DNA from: Laetmonice hystrix
Lineage: Eukaryota
Length of the DNA stretch: 64,000 bases
Direction: 5' to 3'
Assembly (NCBI GenBank): GCA_965235115.1
Contig: OZ249436.1
Coordinates: forward strand, 16,928,001-16,992,000
A program made the translations under genes and the position numbers. Under the pieces are notes generated by a model that was not told the origin of the DNA, ran no database searches, and saw only the letters and a program-made list of their open reading frames with translations. Below are positions 1-45,046 of the stretch, piece after piece. How positions within the stretch are numbered: position 1 is the first letter of the stretch; each line of letters starts with the position of its first letter.

Positions 1-177
1 ACGTTATTGCCAGTGGTGCTGGGCACGGCGATGTTAAGGCTAAGGTTTTGGTCGTGCTTGGTGACCCGTTGGGCGAGCGCCTGGTGTTGGTGGGCGGGTA
101 CCTCCAGCGACCTCCTCCCGGGGCTCCCGTGACGCATCAGGTCCTCCAGCTTGTTGTGGAGCGTCTTCATCGACAAC
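1..177 (-). CDS. RGS7-like: R7 RGS tail exon truncated by the window edge (LSMKTLHNKLEDLMRHGSPGRRSLEVPAHQHQALAQRVTKHDQNLSLNIAVPSTTGNN...)
   Basis: Acceptor atattgtag at 178, phase 2; frame open to base 1. Confidence 0.72.
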
Positions 178-3100
178 CTACAATATCACGTGGTGCAGTC
201 TCAGCTAATCACCTGCTAGACGGGTTCATGTTTATAATATACCATCATTCACAGTTATGTGTGTGCAAGATGTCGACTGAAAGATTATGGAAGGAGAGAA
301 GACTTAGCCTTAAGATTATTCATGTCCAATTGTTTATGGCCAAAGCCAAAGCGAAGAGCAATTCATTGCCAACACTTTCCAATGATTTAATGCAATAAAA
401 AAAAAATTAAAAATAGAGCCAGTTTGAGGGTCCGATGATATGTATGAAGATCACGTGATACGTTAGATGATATCTCACTCACCCCTTCTTGTTTTCACCC
501 TTCACATCGCCAGTACTCCTGCAACGTGACAGTTCAATGGATCAGTTCCCACGGGTTGAGGTTGTAGGTTGATTAACAGGGTTAATTAACATCCCAGCCC
601 TGACCTACTACAGGCTTAATGAGGGTTGACCTGTTAGAGCCTAGAGCAGTCCCGTCTCACCTCCATTAATAACACCTCCTATACCCAAATCATGATATGT
701 TTAAACCTTCTATCGTCATCAATATAGGAGTATAAGACTGTCGGACAGGAGCACACCAAGGATTAACCTCGGGTTTAGGTCAAAGTGGAGGTTAACCCTT
801 GCTGTCCTCACCCACCCACAGCCACACTCACCCAAAGGGCGACGACTTGTTCGACTTGCCGTTGATATCTAGCTCATGGAGGTTTCCGGTGCTGAAGGAA
901 TGCTGGGATAGCCCGGCTTCCGTCGTCATCTTGGTTGCGACGTTCATGTCGTCCGAGGCACTACCGCGTCGTTTGGGCTTCGGGCTCGGGTTGGGAGACT
1001 TCTTCTTGGTTCCTCCAAAATTAAAAAATCTTCAAACGGAAAAACAAAGTCGTAATGTTTAAATATATCATACTGGAATGGAAGGTCTTTACCTACGGTT
1101 ATTCTGATAAATTAAAGCTATATTTAGTATCTGTAACCTTTCTTAAATCTTCGACTACAGAGAGTCTGACGTGATTTGACTGACAGTGAAGAGGAGTTTA
1201 AAAAAAGAAAGAAAGAGAGGCACAGACTTACTTTTTCTTCGGGCATGGGTTGACAGCATTAGCGAGGAGATACTTAAAGTGGTCGGACCGAATGAAGCGG
1301 TTATAACTGTCTTTCTTCATCAGCGTGTAAATATGGTCCTGGGCCTTGTCCATGGTAAACCTGGGCCAGAGACACACGTAATTATATCAGGGCCTTGTCC
1401 ATGGTAAACCTGGGCCAGAGACACACGTAATTATATCTGGGCCTTGTCCATGGTAAACCTGGGCCAGAGACACACGTAATTATATCTGGGCCTTGTCCAT
1501 GGTAAACCTGGGCCAGAGACACACGTAATTATATCAGGGCCTTGTCCATGGTAAACCTGGGCCAGAGACACACGTAATTATATCAGGGCCTTGTCCATGG
1601 TAAACCTGGGCCAGAGACACACGTAATTATATCAGGGCCTTGTCCATGGTAAACCTGGGCCAGAGACACACGTAATTATATCTGGGCCTTGTCCATGGTA
1701 AACCTGGGCCAGAGACACACGTAATTATATCAGGGCCTTGTTAATGGTAAACCTGGGCCAGAGACGCACGTAATTATATCAGGGCCTTGTCCATGGTAAA
1801 CCTGGGCCAGAGACACACGTAATTATATCAGGGCCTTGTCCATGGTAAACCTGGGCCAGAGACACACGTCATTATATCAGGGCCTTGTCCATGGTAAACC
1901 TGGGCCAGAGACACACGTCATTATATCAGGGCCTTGTTAATGGTAAACCTGGGCCAGAGACACACGTAATTATATCAGGGCCTTGTCCATGGTAAACCTG
2001 GGGCCAGAGACACACGTAATTATATCAGGGCCTTGTTAATGGTAAACCTGGGCCAGAGACACACGTAATTATATCAGGGCCTTGTCCATGGTAAACCTGG
2101 GCCAGAGACACACGTAATTATATCAGGGCCTTGTCCATGGTAAATCTGGGGCCAGAGACACACGTAATTATATCAGGGCCTTGTTAATGGTAAACCTGGG
2201 CCAGAGACACACGTAATTATATCAGGGCCTTGTTAATGGTAAACCTGGGCAAGAGACGCACGTAATTATATCAGGGCCTTGTCCATGGTAAACCTGGGCC
2301 AGAGACACACGTAATTATATCAGGGCCTTGTCCATGGTAAATCTGACCCAGAGACACACGTAATTATATCAGGGCCTTGTCTATGGTAAATCTGACCCAG
2401 AGACACACGTAATTATATCAGGGCCTTGTCCATGGTAAATCTGACCCAGAGACACACGTAATTATATCAGGGCCTTGTCCATGGTAAACCTGGGCCAGAG
2501 GCACACGTAATTATATCAGGGCCTTGTCCATGGTAAAAACGATGATATTTCTACGTCTTTGAGGGTATAAGATATAAGATGGTCATATAAGAGGTAGAAG
2601 TACTTTCTGTACATTATCCTACTTAACCTTTCCTTAAAGCCGATTGGTGTTCGGGACTATGAACCAGTGCTCCGACCTCACATAGATTTAGGTATAGGGT
2701 AGACCACCGGGACTATGAACTATACCGACCTGTCCGGATGTTTGAGGTGTTGCACCGTGTATTCCATGGTCCGAGCGTCGATGTTGATCTCATGGGGCGC
2801 TCCCGACGCCAGGAACTCTCTGAGAATGACAACGACATAGAATACAGTGACCATGCAGGCGGTCACACAGATCATATTACATTCTGGACGTTTGTCTTAC
2901 AGCGACGTCTACTCTGGGATCAACAACATAGTTACCGCAAAATGAGTCTGCATGATTTCCCAAGGTGTAATTATACTTACGTCATGGATACCGGGATGGC
3001 TTCAGAGTCACGTGACCGGGATTTGTGGGTCAGGTGACCGGGATCTGAGGGTCCCGTAACGGGGTGACTGGATCACGTTACTTGGATTAGTGGATCATGT

Positions 3101-6100
3101 GACGGTGGAGATTGTGGATCACATGGTTCTACCTACCTGTATATATCATGAGCCACCTCGCCCACCTTGGAGAGGGCTGACGCTCGGAGCTGTTCGCACG
3201 CCTGCCAGAAGTGAAGGTTTTCCGAACTGTACTCCTTTGTGAGGAAGAGTTCAAATTGGTGGCGACCCTTGGGGTCAGCGAGTACCTCCTGGATGTTGTA
3301 TGCCCACCGCCGGACCTGGCGCTCGGTCGGCGTCGTCGCTCTGTATGGGACACCACATAGGGAGCTGTCGTCAGAGACGGGTACGCAATGCTAGTGTCTC
3401 TTTAAATTACTTAACTGAAAAGTGAGATTCTTATATCTGTATCAAGTTATGGGACACTACTACAAACGTACTAATAAACCTAACGGTGCGACTTTTTTTT
3501 CTCGGTTTACTGGGTTTACACCCCCTGCATGGATGGGGTTAGGTAGGTTAGGGGTGAGTAGAGGATGAGGATGAGTAGGAGATGAGGAGGGTGAATAAGG
3601 GATGAGGATGAGTAGGAGATGTGGGTGAGTAAGGGTGAGGAGGGTGAGTAAGGGAAGGGGTGAGGAGGGTGAGTAGGGGGTGAGGAGGGGTGAGGAGGGT
3701 GATTAGGGAGTGAGGAGGGTGAGGAGAGTGAGGAGGGGTGGGTAAGGGGTGATACGAACCCCTCAGAGTGGAGCTGCCAGTGTGTGATGTCGTCGGTAAT
3801 CCAGGGATTCGAGGGCTGCGGCTGGCAGAGGAACGGGTCGTGCTCGTAGAACTGCTCTGCCCTCTGCTGGAGGCTGGAACAAACAACGATACGCTGAGGT
3901 ACATGGAGACAAACCCTGACTACACAGACACCTCGGCCCTCTGCTGGAGGCTGGAACAAACAACGATACGCTGAGGTACATGGAGACAAACCCTGACTAC
4001 ACAGACACCTCGGCCCTCTGCTGGAGGCTGGAACAAACAACGATACGCTGAGGTACATGGAGACAAACCCTGACTACACAGACACCTCGGCCCTCTGCTG
4101 GAGGCTGGAACAAACAACGATACGCTGAGGTACATGAAGACAAACCCTGACTACACAGACACCTCGGCCCTCTGCTGGAGGCTGGAACAAACAACGATAC
4201 GCTGAGGTACATGGAGACAAACCCTGACTACACAGACACCTCGGCCCTCTGCTGGAGGCTGGAACAAACAACGATACGCTGAGGTACATGGAGACAAACC
4301 CTGACTACACAGACACCTCGGCCCTCTGCTGGAGGCTGGAACAAACAACGATACGCTGAGGTACATGGAGACAAACCCTGACTACACAGACACCTCGGCC
4401 CTCTGCTGGAGGCTACAACAAACAACGGTACGTTGGGCTTCACGGAGGGCATCGGGAGGAACCCTGGATACACAGGTCCCGGGTACAAACCAACACCCAC
4501 AGACACACACCCCCCCCCCCACCCTCACGGCCATACGGTCACCCCCACCCTGGTCCACACCCGCATCCTGGCCCATACCCACACCCTGGCCCATACCCAC
4601 ACCCTGGCCCACACCCGTAACCTGGCCCACACCCACATCCTGGTCCCCGCCGCATCCTGGCCCACACCCACATCATGGCCCACACCCACACCTACTTGCG
4701 TTTTACTGCCCAGAGTTAGAATGACCTGTTCAAACACCTGACTTGATGTCGTCCAAGGCCCAATGTTTCCATGGAGACTGGCGTCCCCCGGCACATCACG
4801 CATTCATTCAATATTAATGGCTCTCTATCTCCGAAGAATAGATTGCTTTTTTTCTTTACTGCCACATATATATTCATGACTCTAGATCCTTTATTTTTTG
4901 CATACCTCGACGATTTTGCCAACATTGGGAACCTTTTTACGCGATCTTCATACAGAGTGATTTCAAGACTGGTCCGTTAAACGGCTGGAGCAGGAACACG
5001 TCCTGACTCAATGGCTGCATTCGATTCGGCAACACGAATGACACGGGCTCCACTCGACCCAAAATAGAACACCCAGTGTGAGTCCCTCGGATCATGTATC
5101 TAGGTCTGGAGTATACTCCCCAGATCCTCGGGGGTTGCTCGTGTTGGATGGCCGTGACGTCATTTTATGACGTCACAGACATTCGGCGACTAGAGCCCTT
5201 GTGTTCAAGTCTATGGCAAGATGACGGACAGAAGTTAAGTTGGGTAAAGCCCCCGTCACACTTTCCCGGATCGCGCGCCGGGTCTTGTCGGATCGGAGCT
5301 ACGGGCGCATCCTTAGTGGACACTTAGCGCTTTCCTAGTAAGCCGTGATCACGTGATCGGTGACGGATCCATTACGAGTTGTTAGGTATCCTTCCCGGGT
5401 ATACGTATGTATTGGTACGTGTAGGGACGGATCACACAAGTATTGGCACGTATCCACTACGGCTTGATACGGTTTGATACGGCGTGCTACGTGTGGTACC
5501 CTACGTATTGTGACGGGTTGGTATGGCTTGCTACGGGTTGCTCAAGGTGAATCAAGGTGGCCAACGCATCCCAAACTGTTCAATCCGTAATAACCTGTCG
5601 GAGATACGTAACAACCTGTAGTAATCCGTAGTGGAACCGCATCAACCCGTAAGAGAGCCGTAGTGAGCCATAGTAAGCCGTAGCTATCCGTATTTATCCG
5701 TAACTATACGGAGTAGACTCGGAAAGCTATCCGTAACAATCCTTCTCAACCCGTAACAATGTCGTAGTAACCCCTACTGGAGCCGTGTCATCCCTTATCA
5801 GCCCGTTCTGGATACGGAGTTTCACGCATCATCGCCTTTCCAGGTCACGGAAGCTGCCGGATCGCCTTGCACTGCGGATCATTCCAAACCGTTGCTTGAT
5901 CCGGGAAAGTGTGACGGGGGCTTAAGTTTGCAACCTGCACATGCTCCATGACCTACTCCCTCGAGCCGAGTGTTAACAATCGAATACAACCCCCCACATC
6001 GGATGACCGTGAAGAAATGGAAAAATAATGGATGGCCATGGCTGGCATACACACTCTATACATCGACGTCCAACCCGGGGGAGGCGCATACACACTCTAT

Positions 6101-9100: not shown

Positions 9101-12100
9101 TGACAGCACAGGGACATGCCCTGAGTCGTCAGGGGACAGGCACTGACAGCACAGGGACATGTCCTTAGTCTTCAGCCTGGGCCAGGCACTGACAGCACAG
9201 GGACATGTCCTGAGTCGTCAGGGGACAGGCACTAACAGCACAGGGACATGTCCTGAGTCGTCAGGGGGCAGGCACTGACAGAACAGGGACATCCTGAGTC
9301 GTCAGGGGGCAGGCACTGACAGCACAGGGACATGTCCTTAGTCTTCAGCCTGGGCCAGGCACTGACAGCACAGGGACATGTCCTGAGTCGTTAGGGGGCA
9401 GGCACTGACAGCACAGGGACATGTCCTGAGTCGTCAGGGGGCAGGCACTGACAGAACAGGGACATCCTGAGTCGTCAGGGGGCAGGCACTGACAGCACAG
9501 GGACATGTCCTTAGTCTTCAGCCTGGGCCAGGCACTGACAGCACAGGGACATGTCCTGAGTCGTTAGGGGGCAGGCACTGACAACACGGGGACATGTCCA
9601 GGGGCAGGCACTTGCAGCACAGGGACATGTCCTGAGTCGTCAAGCAGACAAAGAACAATGTCTATAATCACAGATTTCTACCACAACATATTATGTCAAG
9701 CCCCGCCCCATCACAAGGCCATCTTTGTGTAAGCCTACTGTTGCAAAGGTCCTGCCTCCCCAATAATCTTATCATTAAAGAACTTCAAGACTTCTAACTC
9801 TCAGTGTTGCTGTTTTTAAGCCAGTGTTCCGTGTAAGTACATGATCCCCACCCGACTATTTCGCCAATCTCCTCCTTCTCCTACTCCTCCCCCTCCTCCA
9901 GACGAGGACTCGTTCATGACGCGTTCTCATCTCGGACACACACTGGGTCCAACTCACCGCTGGCCACGATTTACGACCGGAGGCGGAGATGTAAACCGTA
10001 CCAGTTGTAACTGGTCGGACGTGGTTGAGCCGGGTGTGGGCCATCGGGGCTGGGCCGGGTGTTGGCCATCGTGGCTGGGCCGGCTGTGGGCCACCGTGGT
10101 TGAACCGGCTGTGGGCCACCGGGGCTGGGCCGGCTGTGGGCCACTGGGGCTGGGCCGGCTGCGGGCCACCGTGCCTGGGCCGGCTGTGGGCCACTGGGGC
10201 TGGGCCGGCTGTGGGCCACCGTGGCTGGGCCGGCTGTGGGCCACCGGGGCTGGGCCGGTTGTGGGCCACCGTGGTTGGGCCGGGTGTGGGCCACCTGGGT
10301 TGGGCCGGCTGTGGGCCACCGTGGCTGCAGCAGTTGGTCTCTTACCCGACCTGCCATGGGTCGCCCTGCCGCACAGTGCTCGACTCGTGTCAGTAGCACC
10401 GTGACGTCGTCCATGCAGGAAGAGGGCAGCCAGCCAGATCCTTGACTGGATGTCGTCCCAGTTGCCTATCACAGAGGCAAGCCAGGATCCCCAAGCCAAA
10501 TCCAAGCTTAGGACTGCCAACTAAATCCAAGCTTGGGAACACCAACCAAATCTAAGCTCACTTTGGGTCCCATGTTCACTCAGCACGGCCGAGCTGTTGC
10601 TATTACCCACTACAGATACGTGTCTGGCTGTCTGTCGTAGATGTACCCGTACCCTTCATAAATAACAAGTAACAGCACGACACTAGGAACGGACCGCCCT
10701 CTCTAATATCGCATGTAATACTGCAGTCTTTACTTCAACTGTAAACAACCAGTATAAATCTCGGTTTTATGAGTAGACAAGCCGCTAAAGTGAGGTTGTA
10801 AATTAGCGGTGCTGACTTGACAAGCTACGAGAATCCCCGGCGGTTTGCCGACCGCTCTCCGATAGGGGTCTCTATTAGAGAATGTCAGTCCTAGCAAAAC
10901 TGCACGACTGTCAACGGAGGTTCCCTCTAAATTAGACTGGGTGTTGTGTTGTTGTTGGGGTGGGGTGACCGGGGTGGGATAAATGGTTGTAGTAGGCCTA
11001 CCGATACAGAGACAAGCCCGGTGACAAGCCCAGAGGAAATATCAGCGCTGGGACGTTCAACCCTCAATCAACCCCGTAGTACAGATTTATTAAGAAAGAA
11101 CTGATCAAGCAAGTTTCATTATTCTGTAGAACCGAATAATAATATATAAGCCCAGTTGTAGTACCGAGATAGAGAAGCCCGGTTGTACTACGATATAAGC
11201 CCGGTTGTAGTACAGGCAGACGGAGAAGCCCGGTTGTAGTACCGGTATATACAAAGAAGCCCGGTTGGACTACGATATAAGCCAGGTTGTAGTACAGGCA
11301 GACGGAGAAGCCCGGTTGTAGTACCGGTATACAGAGAGTACCGGTATACAGAGAAGCCCGGTTGGACTACGATATAAGCCAGGTTGTAGTACAGGCAGAC
11401 GGAGAAGTCCGGTTGTAGTACCGGTATATACAAAGAAGCCCGGTTGGACTACGATATAAGCCAGGTTGTAGTACAGGCAGACGGAGAAGCCCGGTTGTAG
11501 TACCGGTATACAGAGAGTACCGGTATACAGAGAAGCCCGGTTGTAGTACCGGTATACAGAGAGTACCGGTATACAGAGAAGCCCGGTTGTAGTACCGGTA
11601 TACAGAGAAGCCCGGTTGTAGTACCGGTATATACAAAGAAGCCCGGTTGTACTACGATATAAGCCCGGTTGTAGTACAGGCAGACGGAGAAGTCCGGTTG
11701 TAGTACCGGTATACAGAGAAGCCCGGTTGGACTACGATATAAGCCAGGTTGTAGTACAGGTAGACGGAGAAGCCCGGTTGTACTACGATAAAAGCCCGTT
11801 TGTATAGTACAGGTATACAGAGAAGTCCGGTTGTACTACGACATAAGCCCGGTTCTAGTACCGGTATACGGAGAAGCCCGGTTGTAGTACCGGAGATAAG
11901 TACCAGTATATCAAGGGGACAAGGCTGTCCAGCCAGCCCCTAATGTCCTGACTGGCCTTTGGTCTCAGCGAAATGACCCCGGACAGAAGAGCTACAACAT
12001 CAATGAAACACCCCGCCCATACAAACGACCTCATTGACCTTTACTCGACCTACCTTTCTGCTGCCTTTGAAGTCTTCATCCGCGCTTGCTTCAAACAATG

Positions 12101-18100: not shown

Positions 18101-21100
18101 TGGACAGACACCGAACCGTTGGGGGGTCCTGGGACTGATGGACAGACACAGAACGGTTGGGGATCCTGGCACTGATGGACAGACACAGAACGGACGGGGG
18201 CCCTAGGACTGATGGACAGACACAGAACGGTTGGGGGTCCTAGGACGGACGGACACAGAATGGTCGGGGGTCCTGGGACTGAGGGACAGACACAGAACGG
18301 TTGGGGGTCCTAGGACTGATGGACAGACACAGAACGGTTTGGGGTCCTGGACCTGAGAGGGATGAAACCATGAACATGAGAACATGAGTTATGAGAGGCA
18401 ATAAGTTAATTATGTATCTGGCCCTGTCTGACCGAGAAAAACCAAGTTAACATCGGACAGCGGTGTATAGACATGTCCTTTACGACAGCCCGGGGTGGAG
18501 CAGACATATTAGGTCTGTTCGCTTGGATAGAAAATATTGGCTGCCATTTTACCGGTGGTCCGGGCCGGATGGGCCGTCCTGAATGTCAAGCAGTGACTTT
18601 GAATCTCCCAGCTAGGGAGTGGAGGATGCTTGCGCCTGCCTCCCCCCCCCCCCCACACTCAACCCACTCAGTGCGCCTGCCCCCCCCCCCCCACTAAACC
18701 ACCTCAGGGCGCCTGCCCCCCCCCCCCCACTGAACCCCCTCAGGGCGCCTGCCCCTCTCCGTGTCTCCTCGCCGTGTCCCCTCTCCGTGTCCCCTCTCTG
18801 TGTCCCCCTCTCCTGTCCCCGCCCCTCGCCTGTCCCCGTCTCCCCTCTCCTGTCCCCGCCTCCCCTCCCGGATTACGTCATGAACACAGGAGAGCCACGT
18901 CCCGGATGTAGAACGTCGGTCTGATGGCGGCCAACAGAGGGGGCGACAGTCGTTGCTTCCGGTCACAGTGCATCAACCCAGACACAAGCAGCGGGAACGA
19001 GGCTCAAGGACAGCCAGGTCAAACCTAACACAAAACCAAGTCACCAGGGACAATGATAACAGAGATCGCCGTAATAACGTATAACTATAATATGATAACA
19101 TAGACCGTCATAATAACGTAACTAACTATAATATGATAACATACACCGCCCTAATAACGTATAACTATAATATGACATTAAAAGTGGGAGACGGCGGCGG
19201 AATTAAACATGGTTCAACTCGGCTGATGGTTCGAGACGGATCCTCACCACGGGCAGCTGGATGTCATCATCATCAATGCCATCCTCAACACCATCAGAGA
19301 TCATCAACATCATTGCCATCCTCAACATCATCAGAGATCATAGTCATCATCGGAGATTATCAATATCAACATCATTGGAGAGGAGGAGGAGTAGGAGGAG
19401 GAGGAAGAGGAGGAGGAGGAGGGGCAGGAGGAGAGAGAAGGCATAGGAGGGGCAGGAAAGGGGAATGGACAGGAGGGAGAAGAGGAGGGGGAGAGGAGGC
19501 GGCAGGAGGGGGAGAGAATATAATATCCCGGAGCTTGCGTGGATCTGAATTATGGGGATCCATCGTTTGGTGGGTTGTCCCTGTGTAATCTATGATGACG
19601 CACCACTCCACATCATTCGATAACGTAGAAATCAGGGTTATTTCGAACTGAATGCTTTAAGCCACCTACCAGTACCTGACCTGGATATCCATCTGACCTG
19701 GATATCTCACGTGGTTTTAATATGGGTCGAGGGATGACCGGCTTGAGTGGTACCCCAACTGATCTCACGAGGGTAAATTACTAACTCATGCATTATAAAT
19801 ATATCATCATAATCCGGAGGTTTTTTTTATCTACACTTGCCCTGATAACAGGCGTGATGTACCTACCTAACCTGTTACAGGAATACTTGCCCTTAGAACA
19901 GGGGTGATGTACCTAACCTGTTAAAGGAATACTTGCCCTGATAACTGGGGTGATGTACTTACCTAACCTGTTCCTCTGCTTGCATGAGTATGAAGTCCCA
20001 TTTATCACAAAGCATCTTTTGTAGCTTGTTGAACGACGCCTGAAACAAAGAATAGGAATAACATGAACATTCTTTATGAAGCCCTCTGTACAGGCAAAAC
20101 CGCTAACAGGCCGGGGCATCAAATCAGGAGGTGGATCCTTGTTCTTGTACAGGTAACTCGGCGTCTCTAACAGGTCAGGGGAATGGATCAAATCAGGGGT
20201 GGATCATTGTGACTGTAAGGTAACTCTGTGTCTCTAACAGGCCGGGGCATCAAATTATGAGGTGGATCCTTGTGACTGTACAGGTAACTCGGCGTCTGAA
20301 ACAGGTCGGGGGAAGGGATCAAATAATAGGTTATACAGGTAACTCAGCGTCTGAAACAGGTCGGGGGAAGGGATCAAATCAGGGGGTGGATCCTTGTGAC
20401 TGTACAGGTAACTCAGCGTCTCTAACAGGTCGGGGGAACGGATCAAATCAGGAGGTGGATCCTTGTGACTGTACAGGTAACTCAGCGTCTGAAACAGGTC
20501 GGGGGAACGGATCAAATCAGGGGGTGGATCCTTGTGACTGTACAGGTAACTCAGCGTCTCTAACAGGTCGGGGGAAGGGATCAAATCAGGGGGTGGATCC
20601 TTTGTGACTGTACAGGTAACTCAGCGTCTGAAACAGGTCGGGGGAAGGGATCAAATCAGGGGGGTGGATCCTTGTGACTGTACAGGTAACTCAGCGTCTC
20701 TAACAGGTCGGGGGAACGGATCAAATCAGGGGGTGGATCCTTGTGACTGTACAGGTAACTCAGCGTCTCTAACAGGTCGGGGGAACGGATCAAATCAGGG
20801 GGTGGATCCTTGTGACTGTACAGGTAACTCAGCGTCTCTAACAGGCCGGGGCATCAAATCAGGGGGTGGATCCTTGTGACTGTACAGGTAACTCTGCGTC
20901 TGAAACAGGTCGGGGGAATGGATCAAATCAGGGGGTGGATCCTTGTGACTGTACAGGTAACTCAGCGTCTGAAACAGGTCGGGGGAATGGATCAAATCAG
21001 GGGTAACCCAGCGTCTCTAAGGCCTGCATCCCGTGAGATATTAGTTAAACTGGCAGCTCAGCGCTCGCCGCCAACAATATCTCACATGTAGGAGTTGTGT

Positions 21101-24100
21101 GGACGATCTGAACACTCAGGCTCCTCCTCTTCATGTCATTATTGATGTCACTGCTTCCACTGCTGTATCCACCTGCCGCGCGCCCTTCCTCCCTCCACCT
21201 TACCCCCAACCCCCGCAATCCACACAGGATGGTCCTCATCACGTGCAAAAAGGTCACTGGTCAACTCCAGTGAGATGAAGACAGAGTCCTGGCTGAACCT
21301 ACAAATTGGTCCCACACTTACAAGTCAAGCTCTGACTCTACAAGCTATAGACCAACTTTAAAATATATACCAACTTAAAAAGTTATCACTAACTCTACAC
21401 ATCAATTCTCAGGCCAAGCCCATCAATTCTCAGGCGAAGCCGTGCGCAAAATCTCTACATTACGGCTTAAAGCCTGTAAAGCCACGTCCAGTAACAGCAC
21501 GCTCACACTCGATCCCCCCGAGCATGTTTTATCAATATAGCGCGTGGCCTCTCTTTGACAAGTCTGACCAAACTTGGAGTTGAACCAGAAATCATTTCCT
21601 CACCTGTTCGTGATCGTCAAGTCCGTGTCGCTGTTTGTTGCGCATGCTCCGTTTGGCCAGGTAGATAGCTGAAAGTACAGTGTTCCGGAGAGTTGAAGTG
21701 TACTGCTTGTGGCTTGATTACACACCAATCAGCGCTATATATATTTATTTCGGACCTCTTTATGCTATTATATAAGAAAAACGCAATGTCAGTCGAAAGA
21801 TTTTGCCCCTTTAAGATATCAATGTTACACCGGCGTGTATGCCTTGGAGACCTGACGCCAGGAATCTAGGTCACGAAACACAAGACGACATCAATCAAAT
21901 CAATACCATGAGATCAGCTTTGACTTCAGATCTCTTCAGGTCAAGCGATCCATGAGCTCGAGGAATCCATTATCTGAAGGAAGAGGATGGTTAACACTTG
22001 ATGACGATGGGCACGTCTGCAGCCCCTTCCATGAGGCAGGGGGCACACGTACGCGCATCCCCTCCCATGAGGCAGGGCTGCAGACCTTACATGAGGCTGG
22101 CAGCCGGCATACCATCCGGGGCCTGCCTCATGGACTAAAATGCCTCGTCAGGTGACCTCATGAATCCTGCATGGACAGGTCACCGACAAACAGGGCTTAT
22201 ACGTTGATTGATGCTCATTGACATATGTCATCAAACTTTGATTGACAGCTGCTAGAGCCCACTTACCGCAATCTCTCTCCCACCCCTCTCCCCTCCATAA
22301 TGACGACTGCTCAGTCTGCAATCACACCACAACGTCTGCATGTTTCTATCTTCGGTACAGATACATTCCTCTCGGTGTTAGAGTAGAGGATAGAACTAAT
22401 TGGCTTTGTAATATTCAACTGTATTGTTTATATACATGTACATGTATATATAATCGTTATTATGATGATGACAAATATGAGTTCAAGTCAGAATCGCGGA
22501 GTAAGCAGAATGGCAGGGCTTTCATTGCTCCTGGTCAGTGCTGACGTAGCAGATATTCGAACAGTTCTCGCGATGTTGGTCAAGTCTCCGACCGGATCTC
22601 GTCTCCAAGAGAACGCCGCGCCCGCTGTCCATACGTCACGTGACTCGGGACCTCAGGTGGCGTCTGTCTGCAGGGTCACGGCCTCGAGGTCACAGCCTCG
22701 CTGTAGGTGTGACGTCCCATTCTGAGGTCAAACGTTTCATATGGGCCAGGACTGTTTTGGGGTGACCACATGCGCCAAGCATAGCGTATGACCGCAGGCA
22801 CGGTGTGACCACAGGGGCGGTGTGACCCCAGGCACGGTGTGACCCTAGGCGCGGTGTAACCACAAGCGCAGTGTGACCACAGGGGCGGTGTAATAACGAC
22901 AGACGCGGTGTGACCACAGGGGCGGTGTAACGACAGACGCGATGTGACCACAGGGGCGGTGTGACCCAACCAGACCCACAACCGGCCCCTGACATCTTCT
23001 TGACCAAAATCAGTTACATCTCGAAGGACTTTATCGGTATATGTCCAAGTTAGAAAAGGACTAAAGTGGACGTACGAAAACGTAAGGTTAGGTTCACCCT
23101 TGTAACCGGTGCTATATGATTGGTCACGAGCAAATGTAATAATATGAGGCGCCACCGCTAGGTACCGTGTTGGTTCTTCGGACGGAGCCGATAGTAGGTG
23201 GGCGGCCGAACTATTTATAACCCGAACGTAAAGGGAACTTATAGCAATGTCACGTGAAAAGTATTCACCAATTATGCAAGGCCTTAGAAAGATTCATGGA
23301 CGTAATGACTGTATAAATGAGGGTCAATTGTGAGTTTGTGTAATAGTTAGATTCTGCTACAACTTTATCAATGGGTGTACAAGTAGTGTGTATACACAAA
23401 TGGGAGTGTGTGTACTAGCCAATTACACTCTGCTACGGCTTTATCAATGGGTGTACAAGTAGTACACACAAATGGGAGTATTTGTACTAGCCGGCTTTAT
23501 CAATGGGTGTACAAGTAGTATACACAAATGGGAGTGTGTGTACTAGCCAATTACTGGGGTTGTAATCAGGTGAAGCAAAACCCCCTAAACTTTTGTGGTG
23601 CAACTTGGGGCGGCTGCGGCAGGTGTGTCCCCTCCCTCAGCAAAAAATGTGATAATTTTATGTTCAAAATGCTTTCTCTCAACGTCTCAAAAAAATTGAC
23701 AAATTATGCCTCAGTTACGACTTTGTAAACAAATCACAACAACATAATTCGGCTCCATGTGATGATAGCTTCGCAAAGAACCTCATCGCTTTGGCCTCAG
23801 ACAACGACTATAAATAACTCGATGAGGAAAACACTTACAAATACCACCTCATAATGCTTGCCTCAGCGGCGGCCACTCGGCCAGTAAGAGGGCCTGGCAC
23901 TAAACCCACTTGACTTAATTTACTCGGTTAGAGATCAGAGATTGAGGGCGGTTGTTTCATGTCACGTGGTCGCTAGGTGTCAGGGACAATCACCCGGTGG
24001 TTATCGTCCACAATGATCTCCATGCCACACTCACAGAGCGTCCACCCGTCCAGACGGTACGGTCACCCCCACCCCCCCCCCACCTTCCCTACTCCAACGT

Positions 24101-27100
24101 AACTAGGTTACTCCGCCCTGATAACTTACATTACCAGCAATGCATGGACCCTGCTGGCAACCTGGCTCGCCATTTGATGGTAGACGTGTTAGGATCTGGT
24201 AAACTGTACACGGTAGACGATTCGTCCAGTCAGGATCCTATTCAGGAGATGGGCTCCGCTTCTAACTTAGTGGGGTATTTTTCAACTCTTTTTCTACTGA
24301 GGGTCCCCTATGGGGCAGGGGGTTTAATGAATGGCTTCCACGCCCTCTTCTCCTTTATCCATGAAAGATAAAGTTCTCCTACAATTGTTTTAAAGAGTCA
24401 TGGTCATAGTCTTCAAACTTAGATGATATACATCAGGATTTCGTGAAAACTGTCACCTGGCAGTTCTGTGTGTACGGAACGTGTTTGTAACATTGACCGC
24501 CCATATAACAGTGACATTTCATTCCACACAACTCCCAACACAGGGATTGTTTGTAGAGACTTTTTCTATTGCTACGTCTGTGTCCATGCCACGCTGAAAT
24601 CGAGGATTCCGTGTGGTAAGAGAACTCCCCAGGATCTGCCGATGAAAATGACTCACATTACATACATAATCTTTATTAGCACTGTCCCATTGGGTTACTG
24701 GCCCACATCAGCCAACTGATGGCAAATCCTCCCTAAGGTTTCAGGTAGGGTAAAGTCCAAGTTCAGTACAAACCAACGAGCCAACCTGCAAATAATTGTT
24801 CTCTGGAATAATGTCTGGATCCGAAACGCCATCTCCGTAACCACACAAAACTGATCCCCACCGACTCCCAGCCGAGATTATGGGCAAGAAAACCCCAAGG
24901 CTTCCACCATAGGGAACCATTACTCATCACACAATATGCATCAGAGCATAACATTTCACCAATTTGCGGCCCTCTATCGCCTACACATAACAACCCCTTT
25001 TCCCTCAGGGCTCCTAAAAACAAGAGAACTAAATATTGTAGGAACTTTTAACTCCCCCCCACCCCCACACGCCCTTAGTGTCTAAAATTTACAATACTCC
25101 CTGTTGGGAGACAGGGAGACAATACTCCCTGTTGCAGTGTTGGGCAGGGTTTCCTGGAGGTTTTCGACTTTTTTTTTGGGGGGGGGGGGGGGGGGGGGGA
25201 ATGGTGCGAGTTTGGGGGGGGGGAGAGTAATGCAAAATTTTCCCCTTGGAAATTTTTTTTTGGGGGGGGGAGTAGCTGAATAATGGGAGAGTCTCCCCCC
25301 CCCCCCCCCCCCAAAAAAAAAGGGTTTGACCGTCTGCAATCAAGGAGAACCAACCTTCCCGCTTCACCCGCTTTGATAACCTTCCCCGCGATTCACATTT
25401 ATACCTAATTTGCATACTTGTGTGACGAAACAGCATTTCGTTCGTTGAGATCTCTTATTTCTGAACCCTGGGCTGTCGTAACCCAGCTCTGAGTTATCTG
25501 GCCACTCACTCAACCACTGCTCCGAGTTTACCAACAAACAAATTTGACAACAGTTACTGACCCAATTTCTCTGATGGACCTGCATGCATTGTTAACCGAT
25601 CCCGATGTAAGGACCTGCATGAATTGTTAACCGACCACCACGTATGGTCGCCAACCAAAAAAGCAGACGGTGATTTGTTGAATGTCCCAGTTACCAACAG
25701 TAGCGCTGATCGCCTGTTGACATGTATTACCGCCTCACATGGCACATCACGGTTACCAAGGTTTGCTGACATTTCCTGATGTCATTGGTCGTCTCCGAGG
25801 GTGATTCGAGGACCAGAGGGTGATTCGACAACCCGAGGGTGATTCGACAACCCGAGGGTGAATGTGACTGGGGGGATTTCACAGAATAAAACTTGTTTGT
25901 CTTGTTTCCACGGTTACAGGGATTAGCATTTCTTAAACTACCCCAGTGGAAAATCTCCCTGTCTGCCATGGAATCCACAGTTTGTGTTCCCGTGATCCGC
26001 CTTAATCCACGATAATCCTCGACTAAACATGTAATTTGACGTCTGGGACGCCTTCCTTGTCCTTGGAACCAGACCCTCCACGGTCCTAGAACCAGTCCAC
26101 TCCACGGTCCTGGAACCAGCTCCCTCCACGGTTCTGGAACCAGGCCCCTCCACGGTCCTGGAGCCATTCCCTCCACGGTCCTGGAACCAGGCCCCTCCAC
26201 GGTCCTAGAACCAGTCCCCTCCACGGTCCTGGAACCAGACCCTCCACGGTCCTAGAACCAGTCCCCTCCACGGTCCTGGAACCAGACCCCTCTACGGTTC
26301 TGGAACCAGGCCCCTCCAGGGTCCTGGAGCCATTCCCTCCACGGTCCTGGAACCAGGCCCCTCCACGGTCCTGGAGCCAGTCCCTCCGCGGTCCTGGAAC
26401 CAGACCCTCCACGGTCCTAGAACCAGTCCCCTCCACGGTCCTGGAGCCATTCCCTCCACGGTCCTGGAGCCATTCCCTCCACGGTCCTGGAACCAGGCCC
26501 CTCCACGGTCCTGGAGCCAGTCCCTCCGCGGTCCTGGAACCAGACCCCTTCACGGTTCTGGAACCAGACCGCTCCACGGTTGTTGGACTCCACGTCCTAC
26601 TGAGTCTGTCCCTCCCACACAGAAGCTTTTCCCTGAACAATATAAGCCAACTCAAGGAAGATTACCTGCAATGCAAATATTGTTTTAACTCTTATATGTG
26701 CATGCTTTCTACGGCAGGTTAATGATCCTCGTGGCATCAGATGAACCTGTCCCTTGGAACCTGTGACTCGCTTTGACCGACAAGGGTAGATCCGAGCCAG
26801 TCTCAATAGGCCTAACTGCTGCCCTCTGTATGTCGGCCACCCGCACACAAATATCAAATTCCAATCGGTATGTTGGAAACAATAACAACAAAATGATCTG
26901 CTTACCATAGTCGACATTGTCGGGCTCCCAGTTTTGTGACGGCCAGAAGTATGGACTCTGGAAGAAAGAAGGACAAAGACAACTGGGTTGTCAACTTATG
27001 GTGAACAGAAATGGCAGACACAGGTATTTAACTAGGGTACTGAATGAGTGTAGTAGCTGTAATGTGAACCGGTAATAGGCCTACTAAATGTGTGTAGTAG

Positions 27101-29215
27101 GCCTACTAAATGTGTGTAGTTAACCCTTAAGTCTTGTTCACTGAGTCAATGACTTCCCTGACATTTTATAAGAGGAATGTTCTTGTGCGAGCGAAGAATA
27201 GACTTTCATAAATTAGTAGAACACTGCGTTCGAGGCCATCCTCCAGAAACTCTCAATCCTGCGCCCAGGTCAAAGGTCACTTCCGTTTAATGCAGACGAG
27301 AGCAAATTGTCGCAAGTATCGGTTCAGCCAGGGATTTCCCCACAGGGCCCACTACACCAAGGCGAAGCCAATCTATTCACGTTTAATGTGGCTATAAGGC
27401 CGTCTTTGTGAAGAAACATGATCTCCCTCCATGCCTTTCCACAATTCTCAGGGGTATTTCACGTCTTTGTGAATATGGGCCACGACGTCGTTGTTGACGT
27501 CACAATGGGCGGCCCCAAGGTTCCCACTCCGTGAAGCCCACTTTATGCGTGGCGGTGGTGTGCACTCAGTGGGATCTACTCCCAGTAACCAGCATCCTTT
27601 GGGGTGGACACTGGGACTGACGACTTCCGGCCACCATTCCATGCACTGGGACTGATGACTTAGGACCACTCACAGCGGATCGACGAGTGTGCCATGGTTT
27701 AGCTAACGTATTCTTTCACTGGTTTCCAAATATATCAAAGTAACAAAATCGAATGTAAGGTTAGGGCTTGGTGATCGGGAAAACTTGTCAGATGAACCTC
27801 CCTGTCGGCACCTCCCTGTCGGCACCTCCCTGTCGGCACCATCCAGTTGGCACCACCCAGTCGGCACCGCCCTGTCGCCACCATCTTGTCGGCACCACCC
27901 TGTCGCCACTGTTCTGTCGGCACCGCCCTGTCGGCACCGCCCTGTCAGCACCGCCATCTGCTTCCGGTCGCCGGAAGTTGGCGGCGCGATCTCGCTTCGA
28001 TCAGTGGCATGCCTGGCTATGTCAGCTGAGGACTGGACGGCTGGCTCGGACCAACGGCAAGCAGGTGGGCGGGACTGTGGACTGTGGGCTTGGTTGATCT
28101 TGACTGTGGGCCTCGTTGACCTGGGATGGGCGGGACTGTGGGCCTGCTGCTGCTGCTGCTGCTGCTGTTACTACTGCTGCTTGGACGGTGAGCGTGAAGG
28201 TGGTTGCTGCTCAGACGGCTGGCCTCATACGACTGCTGCCCACTGACTTATTTGCCTATACATCAAAGCATCATAAAACCCTTATTTATCAGATCCTGAA
28301 GCCGCGAGAAAATGGAGACGAGGCAGCACTTAACAACCGCTGCTGATGACGTCGCTCAGCCAACCAACCAACCAATCAACCTTCCAAACGAGCACCGTTC
28401 CCCCACAAACCTCCTAGCCCGGCCTGCTTCTTCCTGCAGGACAAACCGTATTTTTGGTACAAAAAGCCGAGACAGCTGTATCAGATTCATTCGTGGACCG
28501 CGGTGTACGCTAATGATGCGTTTTTATTTTCAGGCGACCATTAGTAACGCTGGTATCCGTTGACGTGCCATATCCACCTGTGAACACTGATTTACCCAGC
28601 TGTGAAGTCTTTTATCCAGCTGCGAACACTCATTTATCCAGCTGCTTCCTGGAGCAGGTGTTACAGAGGAGCGTCAGCAGCGACACTTACCAGGGTAACC
28701 GGGACAAATCAAACCGCCACTGGAACCACACTAACCACACGAGAGATGGGTGGGGGGGGGGGGGGGGGGGGGTGATGTCACTATGCCCCGTCTCAGAGAA
28801 AATATCTGTATTTCAATTGAAAAAAACCCACGAAGAGCCCGCAGACTGATATTCTAGACATCTTGAGTGAGTATTTGTCTACATGTGTGTATAAGTGCCA
28901 TACTGCATGGACCCATGCAGTCGGGGTTACTAGGGATAAATATTGTGGGACCTATTAATGGCCTCAAAACTCAGCTGGAATTATCCATAACCTAGTTGTA
29001 AGACACGAGCGGCGGCTTACAGACTGTTGTATAAGTATTTGACGAGACGCTCACCTGAAACCTATAGAGCGTTCCGTCGTCCTTCACGAGTAGCGCCTTG
29101 GTGTCAGCCACAGGGAAGAAGTAACCATAGTGACAGAGGAGCCCCGCTAGGTGGAGTGCTTCGGCTGAGTCCTCCACGTGTAACCGATCCATGAGCCATT
29201 CTATGAGGTCGTAAC
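1..29215 (-). CDS. RGS7-like: R7-family regulator of G-protein signalling (DEP-DHEX-GGL-RGS; RGS6/7/9/11, EGL-10/EAT-16 family), spliced CDS of 14 exons, partial at both ends
   Basis: Exons 29215-29055, 26957-26906, 21668-21604, 20039-19963, 17756-17675, 12374-12273, 12115-12054, 3873-3760, 3340-3137, 2819-2730, 1360-1232, 1029-832, 518-483, 177-<1 have GT-AG boundaries with matching phases and join into one open frame. It contains R7 motifs GYFFP..KDDGTLYRFQSPYFWPS, LDSQERAFWRVHRP, DPFL..PQPSNPWITDD, EYSSENLHFW and LMKKDSYNRF. Exact paralog cannot be fixed without a tree. Confidence 0.95.
483..518 (-). CDS. RGS7-like: R7 RGS short tail exon (STGDVKGENKKG)
   Basis: 36 nt; acceptor gttgcag, donor GG|gtgagt; phase 2 to 2; no homology support. 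Confidence 0.6.
832..1029 (-). CDS. RGS7-like: R7 RGS exon, C-terminal tail (FFNFGGTKKKSPNPSPKPKRRGSASDDMNV...HSFSTGNLHELDINGKSNKSSPFG)
   Basis: 198 nt open in the expected frame; acceptor tttgaag, donor GG|gtgagt; phase 2 to 2. Confidence 0.82.
1232..1360 (-). CDS. RGS7-like: R7 RGS exon, RGS domain C-part (FTMDKAQDHIYTLMKKDSYNRFIRSDHFKYLLANAVNPCPKK)
   Basis: 129 nt; acceptor tctctggcccag, donor gtaagt; phase 2 to 2. Confidence 0.95.
1341..2537. repeat. 49-bp minisatellite, ~24 copies, containing the acceptor and first 20 nt of exon 1360-1232
   Basis: Unit gggccttgtccatggtaaacctgggccagagacacacgtaattatatca. Confidence 0.97.
2730..2819 (-). CDS. RGS7-like: R7 RGS exon, RGS domain middle (EFLASGAPHEINIDARTMEYTVQHLKHPDR)
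   Basis: 90 nt; acceptor cattctcag, donor AG|gtcggt; phase 2 to 2. Confidence 0.95.
3137..3340 (-). CDS. RGS7-like: R7 RGS exon, RGS domain N-part (ATTPTERQVRRWAYNIQEVLADPKGRHQFELFLTKEYSSENLHFWQACEQLRASALSKVGEVAHDIYR)
   Basis: 204 nt; acceptor cccatacag, donor AG|gtaggt; phase 2 to 2. Confidence 0.95.
3540..3750. repeat. Purine-rich low-complexity tract
   Basis: Degenerate gagggtgaggag runs. Confidence 0.8.
3760..3873 (-). CDS. RGS7-like: R7 RGS exon, GGL C-half (LQQRAEQFYEHDPFLCQPQPSNPWITDDITHWQLHSEG)
   Basis: 114 nt; acceptor gtttgttccag; donor GG|gttcgt is weak and was chosen for phase fit; DPFL/SNPW GGL motif. Confidence 0.92.
3859..4432. repeat. 77-bp minisatellite, ~7.5 copies, containing the acceptor and start of exon 3873-3760
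   Basis: Unit gccctctgctggaggctggaacaaacaacgatacgctgaggtacatggagacaaaccctgactacacagacacctcg. Confidence 0.97.
4540..4695. repeat. ~18-bp degenerate minisatellite
   Basis: Unit like ccctggcccacacccaca. Confidence 0.8.
5248..5922. mobile_element. Non-autonomous DNA transposon (MITE), PIF/Harbinger-like, 675 bp
   Basis: 25-bp perfect TIR agcccccgtcacactttcccggatc / gatccgggaaagtgtgacgggggct, flanked by TAA on both sides (5245-5247, 5923-5925). Confidence 0.9.
6050..6577. repeat. 35-bp GC-rich minisatellite, ~14 copies
   Basis: Unit ccgacgtccaacccgggggaggcgactcgtccccg. Confidence 0.95.
6612..6890. repeat. G-rich degenerate repeat
   Basis: gggggtagac-type units with long G runs. Confidence 0.85.
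9010..9642. repeat. ~43-bp minisatellite with recurring variant units
   Basis: Unit ggcactgacagcacagggacatgtcctgagtcgtcagggggca; variant ...ttagtcttcagcctgggcca recurs three times. Confidence 0.95.
10020..10327. repeat. 25-bp minisatellite, ~12 copies
   Basis: Unit gggccggctgtgggccaccgtggct. Confidence 0.95.
11146..11900. repeat. Compound ~23-30-bp minisatellite
   Basis: Core aagcccggttgtagtac with alternating linkers. Confidence 0.93.
12054..12115 (-). CDS. RGS7-like: R7 RGS exon, GGL N-half (IEFLRHCLKQARMKTSKAAES)
   Basis: 62 nt; acceptor cttcag, donor AG|gtaggt; phase 0 to 2. Confidence 0.9.
12273..12374 (-). CDS. RGS7-like: R7 RGS exon, DHEX-GGL linker (PLQVKCLEEGVRRNYQPSHMARRKKKNIESIKKE)
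   Basis: 102 nt; acceptor ctgcag (an in-frame alternative ctccag lies 9 nt downstream), donor GAG|gtgcgt; phase 0 to 0. Confidence 0.85.
12612..13175. repeat. 38-44-bp minisatellite, ~14 copies, carrying X-box-like motifs
   Basis: Unit gtgggagtgttaccatggagaccctgtcccccaatacc. Confidence 0.95.
13520..13920. repeat. C-rich ~48-bp repeat plus C-rich tract
   Basis: Unit ccccgtccctcaaccgcccctcccccagccccaccccaggcccccgcc. Confidence 0.9.
14057..14732. repeat. 40/55-bp minisatellite followed by a 19-bp x4 repeat
   Basis: Units ggcccgctcagtgagctcagggtagacgactcgacatcac and agggttgtgacgtaggcct. Confidence 0.93.
15863..16050 (+). repeat. Degenerate TTAGGG-like hexamer repeat
   Basis: ggttagtggcagggctagggttagggttag...; a similar opposite-strand tract lies at 37745-37845. 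Confidence 0.75.
16512..17365. repeat. 34-bp minisatellite, ~25 copies
   Basis: Unit gtccctgcctcattgcctgccggaggggaccgag. Confidence 0.97.
17675..17756 (-). CDS. RGS7-like: R7 RGS exon, DHEX (LAKERKKADKVVLDSQERAFWRVHRPG)
   Basis: 82 nt; acceptor gttgtcctcag, donor gtaagt; phase 2 to 0. Confidence 0.95.
17758..18355. repeat. ~38-bp minisatellite abutting the acceptor of exon 17756-17675
   Basis: Unit ggacagacacagaacggttgggggtcctaggactgat, more degenerate toward the exon. Confidence 0.9.
19050..19175. repeat. ~40-bp x3 repeat
   Basis: atgataaca.a.a.cg.c.taataacgtataactataat. Confidence 0.85.
19260..19515. repeat. Degenerate (CAT)n then (GGA)n simple repeats
   Basis: Seen directly. Confidence 0.8.
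19835..19972. repeat. 46-50-bp x3 repeat containing the donor of exon 20039-19963
   Basis: acttgccct...gtgatgtac(y)tacctaacctgtt at 19835, 19885 and 19931. Confidence 0.85.
19963..20039 (-). CDS. RGS7-like: R7 RGS exon, DHEX (ASFNKLQKMLCDKWDFILMQAEEQVR)
   Basis: 77 nt; acceptor ctttgtttcag, donor AG|gtaagt; phase 0 to 2. Confidence 0.93.
20085..21020. repeat. 69-bp minisatellite, ~14 copies
   Basis: Unit tgtacaggtaactcagcgtctctaacaggtcgggggaacggatcaaatcagggggtggatccttgtgac. Confidence 0.95.
21604..21668 (-). CDS. RGS7-like: R7 RGS exon, DHEX (AIYLAKRSMRNKQRHGLDDHEQ)
   Basis: 65 nt; acceptor tactttcag, donor CAG|gtgagg; phase 1 to 0. Confidence 0.93.
22798..22968. repeat. ~17-bp degenerate minisatellite
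   Basis: Unit gcggtgtgaccacaggg. Confidence 0.85.
23353..23555. repeat. 55-75-bp x3 repeat
   Basis: ctttatcaatgggtgtacaagtagt...tacacaaatgggagt...tgtactagcc. Confidence 0.85.
26063..26580. repeat. 23-24-bp minisatellite, ~21 copies
   Basis: Unit ctccacggtcctggaaccaggccc. Confidence 0.95.
26906..26957 (-). CDS. RGS7-like: R7 RGS exon, DEP/DHEX junction (SPYFWPSQNWEPDNVDY)
   Basis: 52 nt; acceptor ctttcttccag, donor gtaagc; phase 0 to 1. Confidence 0.95.
27796..27957. repeat. ~14-bp degenerate minisatellite
   Basis: Unit ccctgtcggcacc. Confidence 0.85.
29055..29215 (-). CDS. RGS7-like: R7 RGS exon, DEP domain (GYDLIEWLMDRLHVEDSAEALHLAGLLCHYGYFFPVADTKALLVKDDGTLYRFQ)
   Basis: 161 nt; acceptor cttcctcag, donor CAG|gtgag; phase 1 to 0. 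Confidence 0.95.
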
Positions 29216-29940
29216 CTGAGGAAGATAAGTAAACCAAGATAAGATAAGTAAAGAGGTAACGGTGTAAGTATGAGGTCGTAACCTGGGGAAGATAAGTAAA
29301 CCAAGATAAGATAAGTAAAGAGGTAACGGTGTACCCGGTCCATGAACCATTCTATGAGGTCGTAACCTGAGGAAGATAAGTAAACCAAGATAAGATAAGT
29401 AAAGAGGTAACGGTGTACCCGGTCCATGAACCATTCTATGAGGTCGTAACCTGAGGAAGATAAGTAAACCAAGATAAGATAAGTAAAGAGGTAACGGTGT
29501 ACCCGGTCCATGAACCATTCTATGAGGTCGTAACCTGAGGAAGATAAGTAAACCAAGATAAGATAAGTAAAGAGGTAACGGTGTACCCGGTCCATGAACC
29601 ATTCTATGAGGTCGTAACCTGAGGAAGATAAGTAAACCAAGATAAGATAAGTAAAGAGGTAACGGTGTAAGTATGAGGTCGTAACCTGAGGAAGATAAGT
29701 AAACCAAGATAAGATAAGTAAAGAGGTAACGGTGTACCCGGTCCATGAACCATTCTATGAGGTCGTAACCTGAGGAAGATAAGTAAACCAAGATAAGATA
29801 AGTAAAGAGGTAACGGTGTACCCGGTCCATGAACCATTCTATGAGGTCGTAACCTGAGGAAGATAAGTAAACCAAGATAAGATAAGTAAAGAGGTAACGG
29901 TGTACCCGGTCCATGAACTATTCTATGAGGTCATAACCTA
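29178..29940. repeat. 84/67-bp minisatellite containing the acceptor and first ~38 nt of exon 29215-29055
   Basis: Acceptor motif gtaacct at 29211, 29278, 29362, 29446, 29530, 29614, 29681, 29765, 29849, with a variant at 29933. Confidence 0.97.
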
Positions 29941-30590: not shown

Positions 30591-31096
30591 ACGCGGACTT
30601 AGACGACTCTGAATGGATAATGCATATTACTGGTGACATGACCAATGCCTCCATGTTAACTCGAGACACCGACCAGAGCTAATACGTTCACGACAAACAA
30701 CGCCTTCCCCTCTCCTCTCCGGGCTCACAACTGTCAGAGTTCTGTAGATCTATGTAAGTAGATCCGGCTGATCCAGGCGGAGTAATCTCTCTCCAGCGTC
30801 TAGTAATCTGTCCCCCGAGGACGGGCGATCAGACCTTTTGACCGTCTCCTACCGCCCGGCCCGACCGACCACCTGAGCCATTGTTACAAGATGTGTTCGG
30901 CTGACAAAAGTCTTGATTGAGGTCGATACCTGAGCTGAACCGCCCTAACTACCCAGGACCGAGTCCTGCCTGACGTCGTGTTGTCAGCGAACAGAGAGCG
31001 CATTCAGTGGCGCCACACAACGGGCTTTGTGACTTCACAAAACGTTGGCGTCAGGACGCTGAGAGGTCGACAGTTGATCGGTGAACAATATCTCCC

Positions 31097-34000: not shown

Positions 34001-34459
34001 TCATTAATCTCAAGGTCACACGTATATCGAGTTATCCACTCCAATAGATCATACCTCACGGACTGCCCTCATTAATCTCAAGGTCACACTCTATCGAGTT
34101 ATCCACTCCAATAGATCATACCTCACGGACTGTCCTCATTAATCTCAAGGTCACACTCTATCGAGTTATTCACCCCAATAAATCATACCTCACGGACTGT
34201 CCTCATTAATCTCAAGGTCACACTATATCGAGTTACCCACTCCAATAAATCATACCTCACGGACTGTCCTCATTAATCTCAAGGTCACGCGTATATCGAG
34301 TTATCCACTCCAATAGATCATACCTCACGGACTGTCCTCATTGATATCAAGGTCACGCGTATATCGAGTTATCCACTCCAATAGATCATACCTCACGGAC
34401 TGTCCTCATTAATCTCAAGGTCACACTATATCGAGTTACCCACTCCAATAAATCATACC
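31097..34459. repeat. 67-68-bp satellite, ~50 copies
   Basis: Unit ggactgtcctcattaatctcaaggtcacacgtatatcgagttatccactccaatagatcatacctcac. Confidence 0.98.
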
Positions 34460-44915: not shown

Positions 44916-45046
44916 GACGCGGCATGACTGACGTGGGATGGCTGAAAAAATACAAAACGAACTCTTCACGACATCGTCATGATCGAGTATTATCCGGCCG
45001 GTCGCCACGACTGTCCCCATATACATGTAGGCCTACTTCTGTCTAA

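Follow-up and report, generated by a model that had tools for sequence, protein, structure and literature searches.

Mirage minisatellites at four splice sites of an R7-family RGS gene in Laetmonice hystrix and at about 2% of sampled splice sites in the same genome

What does it mean when one gene carries banks of duplicated splice sites beside its exons? A sequence-only reading of the locus studied here had offered two answers: either copy number acts as a heritable dial on productive mRNA, or a mutational process favours duplications at exon boundaries and the decoy sites are ignored. We followed up this question in a window of 64,000 nucleotides (the whole stretch of DNA analysed, G000:C1:16928001-16992000) from a genome of 627 Mb in 35 contigs, and in a blind sample of splice sites from the same genome.

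The host is an R7-family RGS gene on the minus strand, with 14 exons between positions 29215 and 1 that have GT-AG ends and give 515 codons without a stop:

29055..29215, minus strand: exon 1 of the window (DEP domain), true acceptor 29215; frame and homology
26906..26957, minus strand: exon 2; frame and tblastn
21604..21668, minus strand: exon 3; frame and tblastn
19963..20039, minus strand: exon 4, true donor after 19963; frame and tblastn
17675..17756, minus strand: exon 5; frame and tblastn
12273..12374, minus strand: exon 6; frame and splice signals only
12054..12115, minus strand: exon 7 (GGL region, weak homology); frame and tblastn
3760..3873, minus strand: exon 8, true acceptor 3873; frame and tblastn
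3137..3340, minus strand: exon 9 (RGS domain); frame and PDB match
2730..2819, minus strand: exon 10 (RGS domain); frame and tblastn
1232..1360, minus strand: exon 11 (end of RGS domain), true acceptor 1360; frame and tblastn
832..1029, minus strand: exon 12; frame and tblastn
483..518, minus strand: exon 13; frame and splice signals only
1..177, minus strand: exon 14, running off the window; frame and acceptor only

The top PDB match of exon 3137-3340 is RGS9 (E 5e-19), and exon 29055-29215 used as a query retrieved 99 proteins, mostly with DEP, DHEX, GGL and RGS domains. By tblastn with five of these 99 homologues we obtained matches at exons 1-5 and 7-12, the support for exons 6, 13 and 14 being frame and splice signals only. 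Aligned to homologues annotated with PF00610, PF18148, PF00631 and PF00615, the exons fall in order, and the gene has the DEP, DHEX, GGL and RGS domains in the order of the R7 family. A candidate exon at 16249-16326 was dropped because it breaks the reading frame. The next upstream exon lies about 44 kb off, beyond the window (L151:9172-9273), which brings the count to at least 15 exons; the DEP-domain exons on either side are apparently separated by a single intron of about 44 kb, made up of positions 29216-64000 of the window and L151:1-9171.

Tandem repeats cover 40% of the window, versus an average of 12% in myosin and kinesin loci. The largest array in the window (31088-34460, 67 bp x 50) is unrelated to any exon. 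At 42896-44918 a GGTACC-rich element with inverted ends interrupts an array of 25-bp units (11 and 21 copies). The element contains a 198-bp tandem repeat of its own, and the whole resembles a minisatellite into which a transposon has inserted. A 69-bp duplication at 51476-51605, with an acceptor-like pyrimidine tract upstream of it on the minus strand near 51615, is possibly a non-coding or alternative exon.

Using Tandem Repeats Finder, with copy numbers taken as assembled, we found four arrays that each span an exon-intron boundary of the RGS gene:

1341..2537, minus strand: 49-bp array, 24.4 copies, 96%; unit of 20 exon nt and 29 intron nt
1409-2489, minus strand: 23 extra acceptors of the 49-bp array; exon part present but AG absent in the outermost partial copy
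3855..4432, minus strand: 77-bp array, 7.5 copies, 98%; unit of 15-19 exon nt and 58 intron nt
3950-4412, minus strand: 7 extra acceptors of the 77-bp array
~29178..29940, minus strand: 84/67-bp array; unit of 38 (or 14) exon nt and 46-53 intron nt
29282-29937, minus strand: 9 extra acceptors of the 84/67-bp array
19835..19972, minus strand: triplication of a 46-50-bp unit, 2.8 copies, 83%; holds 10 exon nt and the donor
19913 and 19867, minus strand: 2 extra donors of the triplication (scores 5.3 and 9.4; true donor 11.2)

The gene thus holds 39 extra acceptors and 2 extra donors, 41 decoys in total. These results bear out what had been read from the letters: acceptor and exon start amplified at three of the 14 exons by unrelated units, about 23, 7 and 9 extra acceptors, and a fourth exon with its donor triplicated. 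All four units are unrelated to one another. The two that we searched against the genome, the 84- and 77-bp units, match at the RGS locus only, and we reject the idea that they are members of dispersed families, there being no match elsewhere.

Within the arrays the inner units are near-identical (six of the seven units of the 77-bp array are identical), and the array edges are diverged or cut. Beyond the 77-bp array the outer flank, to about position 4490, is a gapped and diverged older copy of the intronic part of the unit, with a score that none of 2000 shuffles reached. We therefore reject a foreign insertion with target-site duplication as the source of this array. No alignment to the unit was found in the outer flanks of the 84- and 49-bp arrays (P 0.24 and 0.49). 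The full 84-bp units all differ from the true exon by the same two amino-acid-changing changes and one silent change, the exonic parts of the decoys are decaying, and there are patterned unit variants and a higher-order structure (the 67-bp unit occurs twice, and there are 50-bp variants). This anatomy suggests an older duplication that diverged, followed by amplification of the inner unit.

The arrays are a new instance of a repeat type that already has a name, one that the sequence-only reading had not recognised. In the available sections of two reports on amphioxus (lancelet), "mirage" minisatellites with units of 10-160 bp are described from Adh3 and the globin genes BflGb6 and BflGb9 (PMC3087553), and others from troponin C and PGBD5 (PMC3902484). 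As there, an intron end with an exon head, or an exon tail with a donor, is repeated in tandem. In all four RGS arrays the tandem unit spans a boundary of the host gene and is of minisatellite size (46-50, 49, 77 and 84/67 bp, tens of bases as in amphioxus), many units keep their AG or GT, either boundary can be copied (39 acceptors, 2 donors), and homogenised inner units lie between diverged edges; several arrays in one gene are likewise seen in amphioxus. The RGS copy number is higher (24 versus 3-6 in the globins), and normal splicing and length instability are shown for the amphioxus arrays.

Two human loci are comparable as far as the available portions of their reports go. The end unit of the 37-bp VNTR in intron 7 (IVS7) of F7 holds the true splice site, with identical pseudo-sites deeper in the intron; these pseudo-donors are functional but unused, in-frame ones included, and only the exon-proximal site is used whether or not the frame is kept (PMC1557585). 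The F7 repeat is on the donor side only, with 5-9 copies and one array in the gene, in contrast to the three acceptor arrays and one donor triplication of the RGS gene. The junction duplication 844ins68 of CBS is spliced to normal mRNA, and CBS also has a 31-bp exon-end VNTR (PMC2630376); 844ins68 is a single duplication, unlike an RGS array of up to 24.

The near-identity of the inner units raises the question of whether the arrays could be assembly artefacts, and one mirage was mis-assembled in a draft genome according to the available text of PMC3087553. The patterned variants and higher-order structure argue against this, as do reads from three DNA runs of one sample, which is perhaps the source of the assembly. 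For the donor array, where the artefact question could be put to reads, the triplication is letter-identical in read-derived contigs of 3/3 runs, and in these contigs no variant letters were found in 689 nt at 19600-20288. In addition, of the words sampled from 1000-4500, a region that is half array, the three runs contain 72-81%. We regard an artefact as scarcely credible.

We then asked how often such arrays occur elsewhere in the genome, starting from all 86 myosin-head and 140 kinesin matches and from the 18 dynein loci behind 90 AAA_6 matches. We took 88 + 72 ten-kb stretches (86 of the 88 were modelled, the matches of the other two lying in overlapping stretches), and built exon models with a custom profile-to-genome spliced aligner, without RNA validation. 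An intron was kept if both flanking exons had at least 20 bits and at least 45 nt, leaving 750 introns (1500 splice sites; median intron 260 nt) from 93 loci. An array was counted as spanning if its period was 16-250 and it covered 8 to 65 exon bases and extended into the intron; we set the thresholds of this blind test ourselves.

Spanning arrays were found at 19 acceptors and 15 donors, that is, at 34 of the 1500 sites (2.3%), and they make up 34 of 154 arrays. Ordered by rising repeat cover of the locus, the spanned sites number 1/894, 6/252, 10/214 and 17/140, a trend that is partly circular because spanning arrays add to the cover. In the RGS gene itself (repeat cover 38%), 4 of the 27 splice sites are spanned versus 1.1 expected under a local null (P 0.024), a value to be read in the light of the window having been chosen for this feature. 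The gene is typical of repeat-rich genes in this genome. This recurrence of the same structure, scaling with local repeat density, favours a neutral reading of the arrays.

A functional reading would begin from the stops. Regulated unproductive splicing coupled to NMD is known from poison exons, and if copy number were a heritable dial, more decoys would mean more premature stops and NMD, and a lower RGS dose. All 41 decoys of the RGS gene (23 + 7 + 9 acceptors and 2 donors) do lead to a premature stop, both extra donors giving one at once, and later exon junctions lie downstream of every one of them, so that alternative site use would place stops upstream of later junctions as in that kind of regulation. 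Most decoy acceptors also score about like the true one (10.0 and 10.0 in the 77-bp array), which counts for the dial and against the neutral reading. Repeat length is known to affect splicing elsewhere; for example, the ABCA7 intron 18 VNTR is among the cases listed in the available part of a review (PMC13196383).

The stops turn out not to be special. The 84-bp unit is a multiple of three and stop-free in the exon frame; the seven 84-bp units are open in that frame except for a stop in the outermost, and two 67-bp units shift the frame. Eight of the nine decoys of this array reach a stop only via the two frameshifting 67-bp units and the ninth via a point change, so the failure of the 84-bp decoys is due to two variants and one point change. 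In the blind sample, 32 of the 34 spanning arrays had decoys by our matching rule (352 decoys, calls uncurated by eye; two arrays dropped), and the nearest decoy was in frame and stop-free in 7 of the 32, versus 21% by simulation from 120 non-spanning units. Unit lengths divisible by three were found in 15/34 spanning and 45/120 non-spanning arrays. Stops were thus no more frequent than chance across these 32 arrays, there is no selection for stop-giving decoys, and chance alone would make all four arrays stop-giving in about 39% of cases (0.79 to the fourth power). The claim that the productive site is in each case the copy nearest the exon body is true but uninformative: since splicing to a more distant copy would put repeat units into the exon, it holds by construction.

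Elsewhere in the blind sample, one donor array in the dynein genes D04/D14 has 30 in-frame, stop-free decoys, and one in the kinesin locus L106 has 10.

The decay of the exonic parts, the lack of a stop bias and the fact that dynein, kinesin and myosin genes carry the same arrays, at a rate that follows local repeat density, all weigh against the dial. Decoys were also silent in amphioxus RT-PCR and in F7 constructs, as given in the available sections of PMC3087553, PMC3902484 and PMC1557585. Of the two branches first proposed, the dial through NMD is therefore left without support and very improbable, and a mutational by-product whose decoys are ignored, with boundary-spanning copies as the survivors, fits, with a modest excess at exon edges.

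How large is this excess, and does it require a process of its own? The sequence-only reading had called for comparing boundary-straddling units with shuffled placements, and the answer differs with the null. A strict null, which moves arrays only within the collapsed intron that holds them and is conservative if deletions trimmed introns after duplication, predicts 26.7 spanning arrays where 34 are observed (P 0.10). A uniform null, which moves them evenly over the locus and is liberal if exons or young insertions are hidden in long introns, predicts 15.4 (P 3e-5, 2.2-fold). For arrays of at least 3 copies and period at least 25 there are 29 versus 19.1 per-intron (P 0.02) or 10.2 uniform, and with introns of at least 800 nt after collapsing set aside, the count is 31 versus 25.0 or 17.0. 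Two early nulls, superseded by these intron-based ones on more data, had given 12 acceptors versus 4.4 and 6 donors versus 4.3 (loose), and 12 versus 5.9 and 6 versus 5.8 (tightened). The excess under the uniform null and for larger arrays means that plain chance is not the full explanation, and we take the modest excess of 1.3-2.2-fold at exon edges as probably real. Because 14 of the 34 events fall in two dynein genes (7/50 and 7/44 sites), the P values are optimistic. These genes are D04 (G000:C18 near 27.78 Mb) and D14 (C13 near 1.16 Mb), with seven mirages each.

One way to account for the excess would be a mutational process that favours duplications at exon edges. The overall excess, rising to 1.5-2.8-fold for larger arrays, suits such a process, and so do the dynein set, which repeats the result of the first set (22 versus 9.5 pooled and 15.9 per-intron), and introns collapsing to more than 200 nt (17 spanning versus 9.2 expected, three strata summed). 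A tentative route would have diverged alleles pair in the conserved exon and resolve out of register in the diverged intron end; this could leave two boundary versions in tandem, of which the inner might then be amplified, a sequel we hold just as loosely. It would match the 77- and 84-bp arrays, in which the outermost exon copy is preceded by an intron end of another sequence that has an AG of its own, but diverged edges are a normal outcome of turnover (PMC3087553, available sections), and the absence of variant letters in the 689 nt at 19600-20288 does not suit diverged alleles. Against the process in general stand the strict null for all arrays, the concentration of events in two genes, and the finding that non-spanning arrays near acceptors are as enriched as spanning ones: on the acceptor side, arrays ending 0-40 nt short of the boundary or less than 8 nt past it number 33 versus 20.4, and spanning ones 19 versus 13.4. 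No excess was seen on the donor side, either just inside the intron (21 versus 20.4) or among spanning arrays (15 versus 13.4). We consider an exon-edge process unlikely. A general attraction of arrays to splice-like motifs was rejected, strong donors occurring in 8 and strong acceptors in 18 of 102 non-spanning units, compared with 7.7% and 19.9% of control windows. Arrays ending anywhere within 40 nt of acceptors are about 1.5 times as many as expected (52 versus 33.8, P 0.002), and donors have no such excess.

Another organism seems to carry an array at the corresponding acceptor, to judge from its protein P0001, which is 77% identical to window exon 29055-29213. The first 100 residues of P0001 can be read as roughly five decayed repeats of the intron end and exon head found at this RGS acceptor, spread over the three frames: the copy at residue 25 is in frame and those at 14, 48, 67 and 87 are shifted, and the best shifted fits, with 4 and 2 base mismatches, lie below those of all 30 shuffles. 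P0001 is likely to reflect a mirage at this acceptor in that organism, judging from the fits, and such recurrence would favour an exon-edge process.

On balance we think it probable that the RGS arrays are mirage minisatellites, a neutral side effect of a genome prone to repeats, and we predict that only the copy adjoining the exon body is used in splicing. Each would have begun as a short local duplication taking in a splice site with the exon edge next to it, and been amplified later. Ancestral introns were presumably short (median 260 nt), so that a 40-80-bp duplication may often have crossed a boundary, and slippage or unequal exchange could then have amplified and homogenised the unit. 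By analogy with F7, CBS 844ins68 and amphioxus, the spliceosome would keep to the exon-proximal site, and the decoys in the RGS gene should be silent. The 1.3-2.2-fold excess at exon edges may reflect shelter from deletion beside constrained sequence, a step against which the missing donor-side excess just inside the intron speaks.

As a single locus the RGS gene is ordinary. The added value lies in the blind measure: 34/1500 sites, a modest excess and unselected stops. We found no genome-wide test of boundary-spanning repeats in the literature searched, which left most subscription journals outside its reach. A bolder generalisation, which we would not bet on, is that a two-fold mutational or survival bias piles minisatellites on exon edges, above all intron 3' ends, leaving about 2% of splice sites (12% in repeat-rich genes) with up to 50 intact decoys and leakage that rises with copy number at a few genes. 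If true, this bias would offer a natural experiment, on the scale of a whole genome, in how identical upstream acceptors are passed over by the spliceosome.

Mirages also mislead gene annotation, P0001 being an example in which an open reading frame appears to have been called through one. They are ready substrates for testing acceptor choice, since a first-AG scanning model would predict that upstream copies are used, and for testing the tandem-duplication route to intron gain. The arrays in D04, D14 and L106 are the best places to seek decoy use unmasked by NMD.
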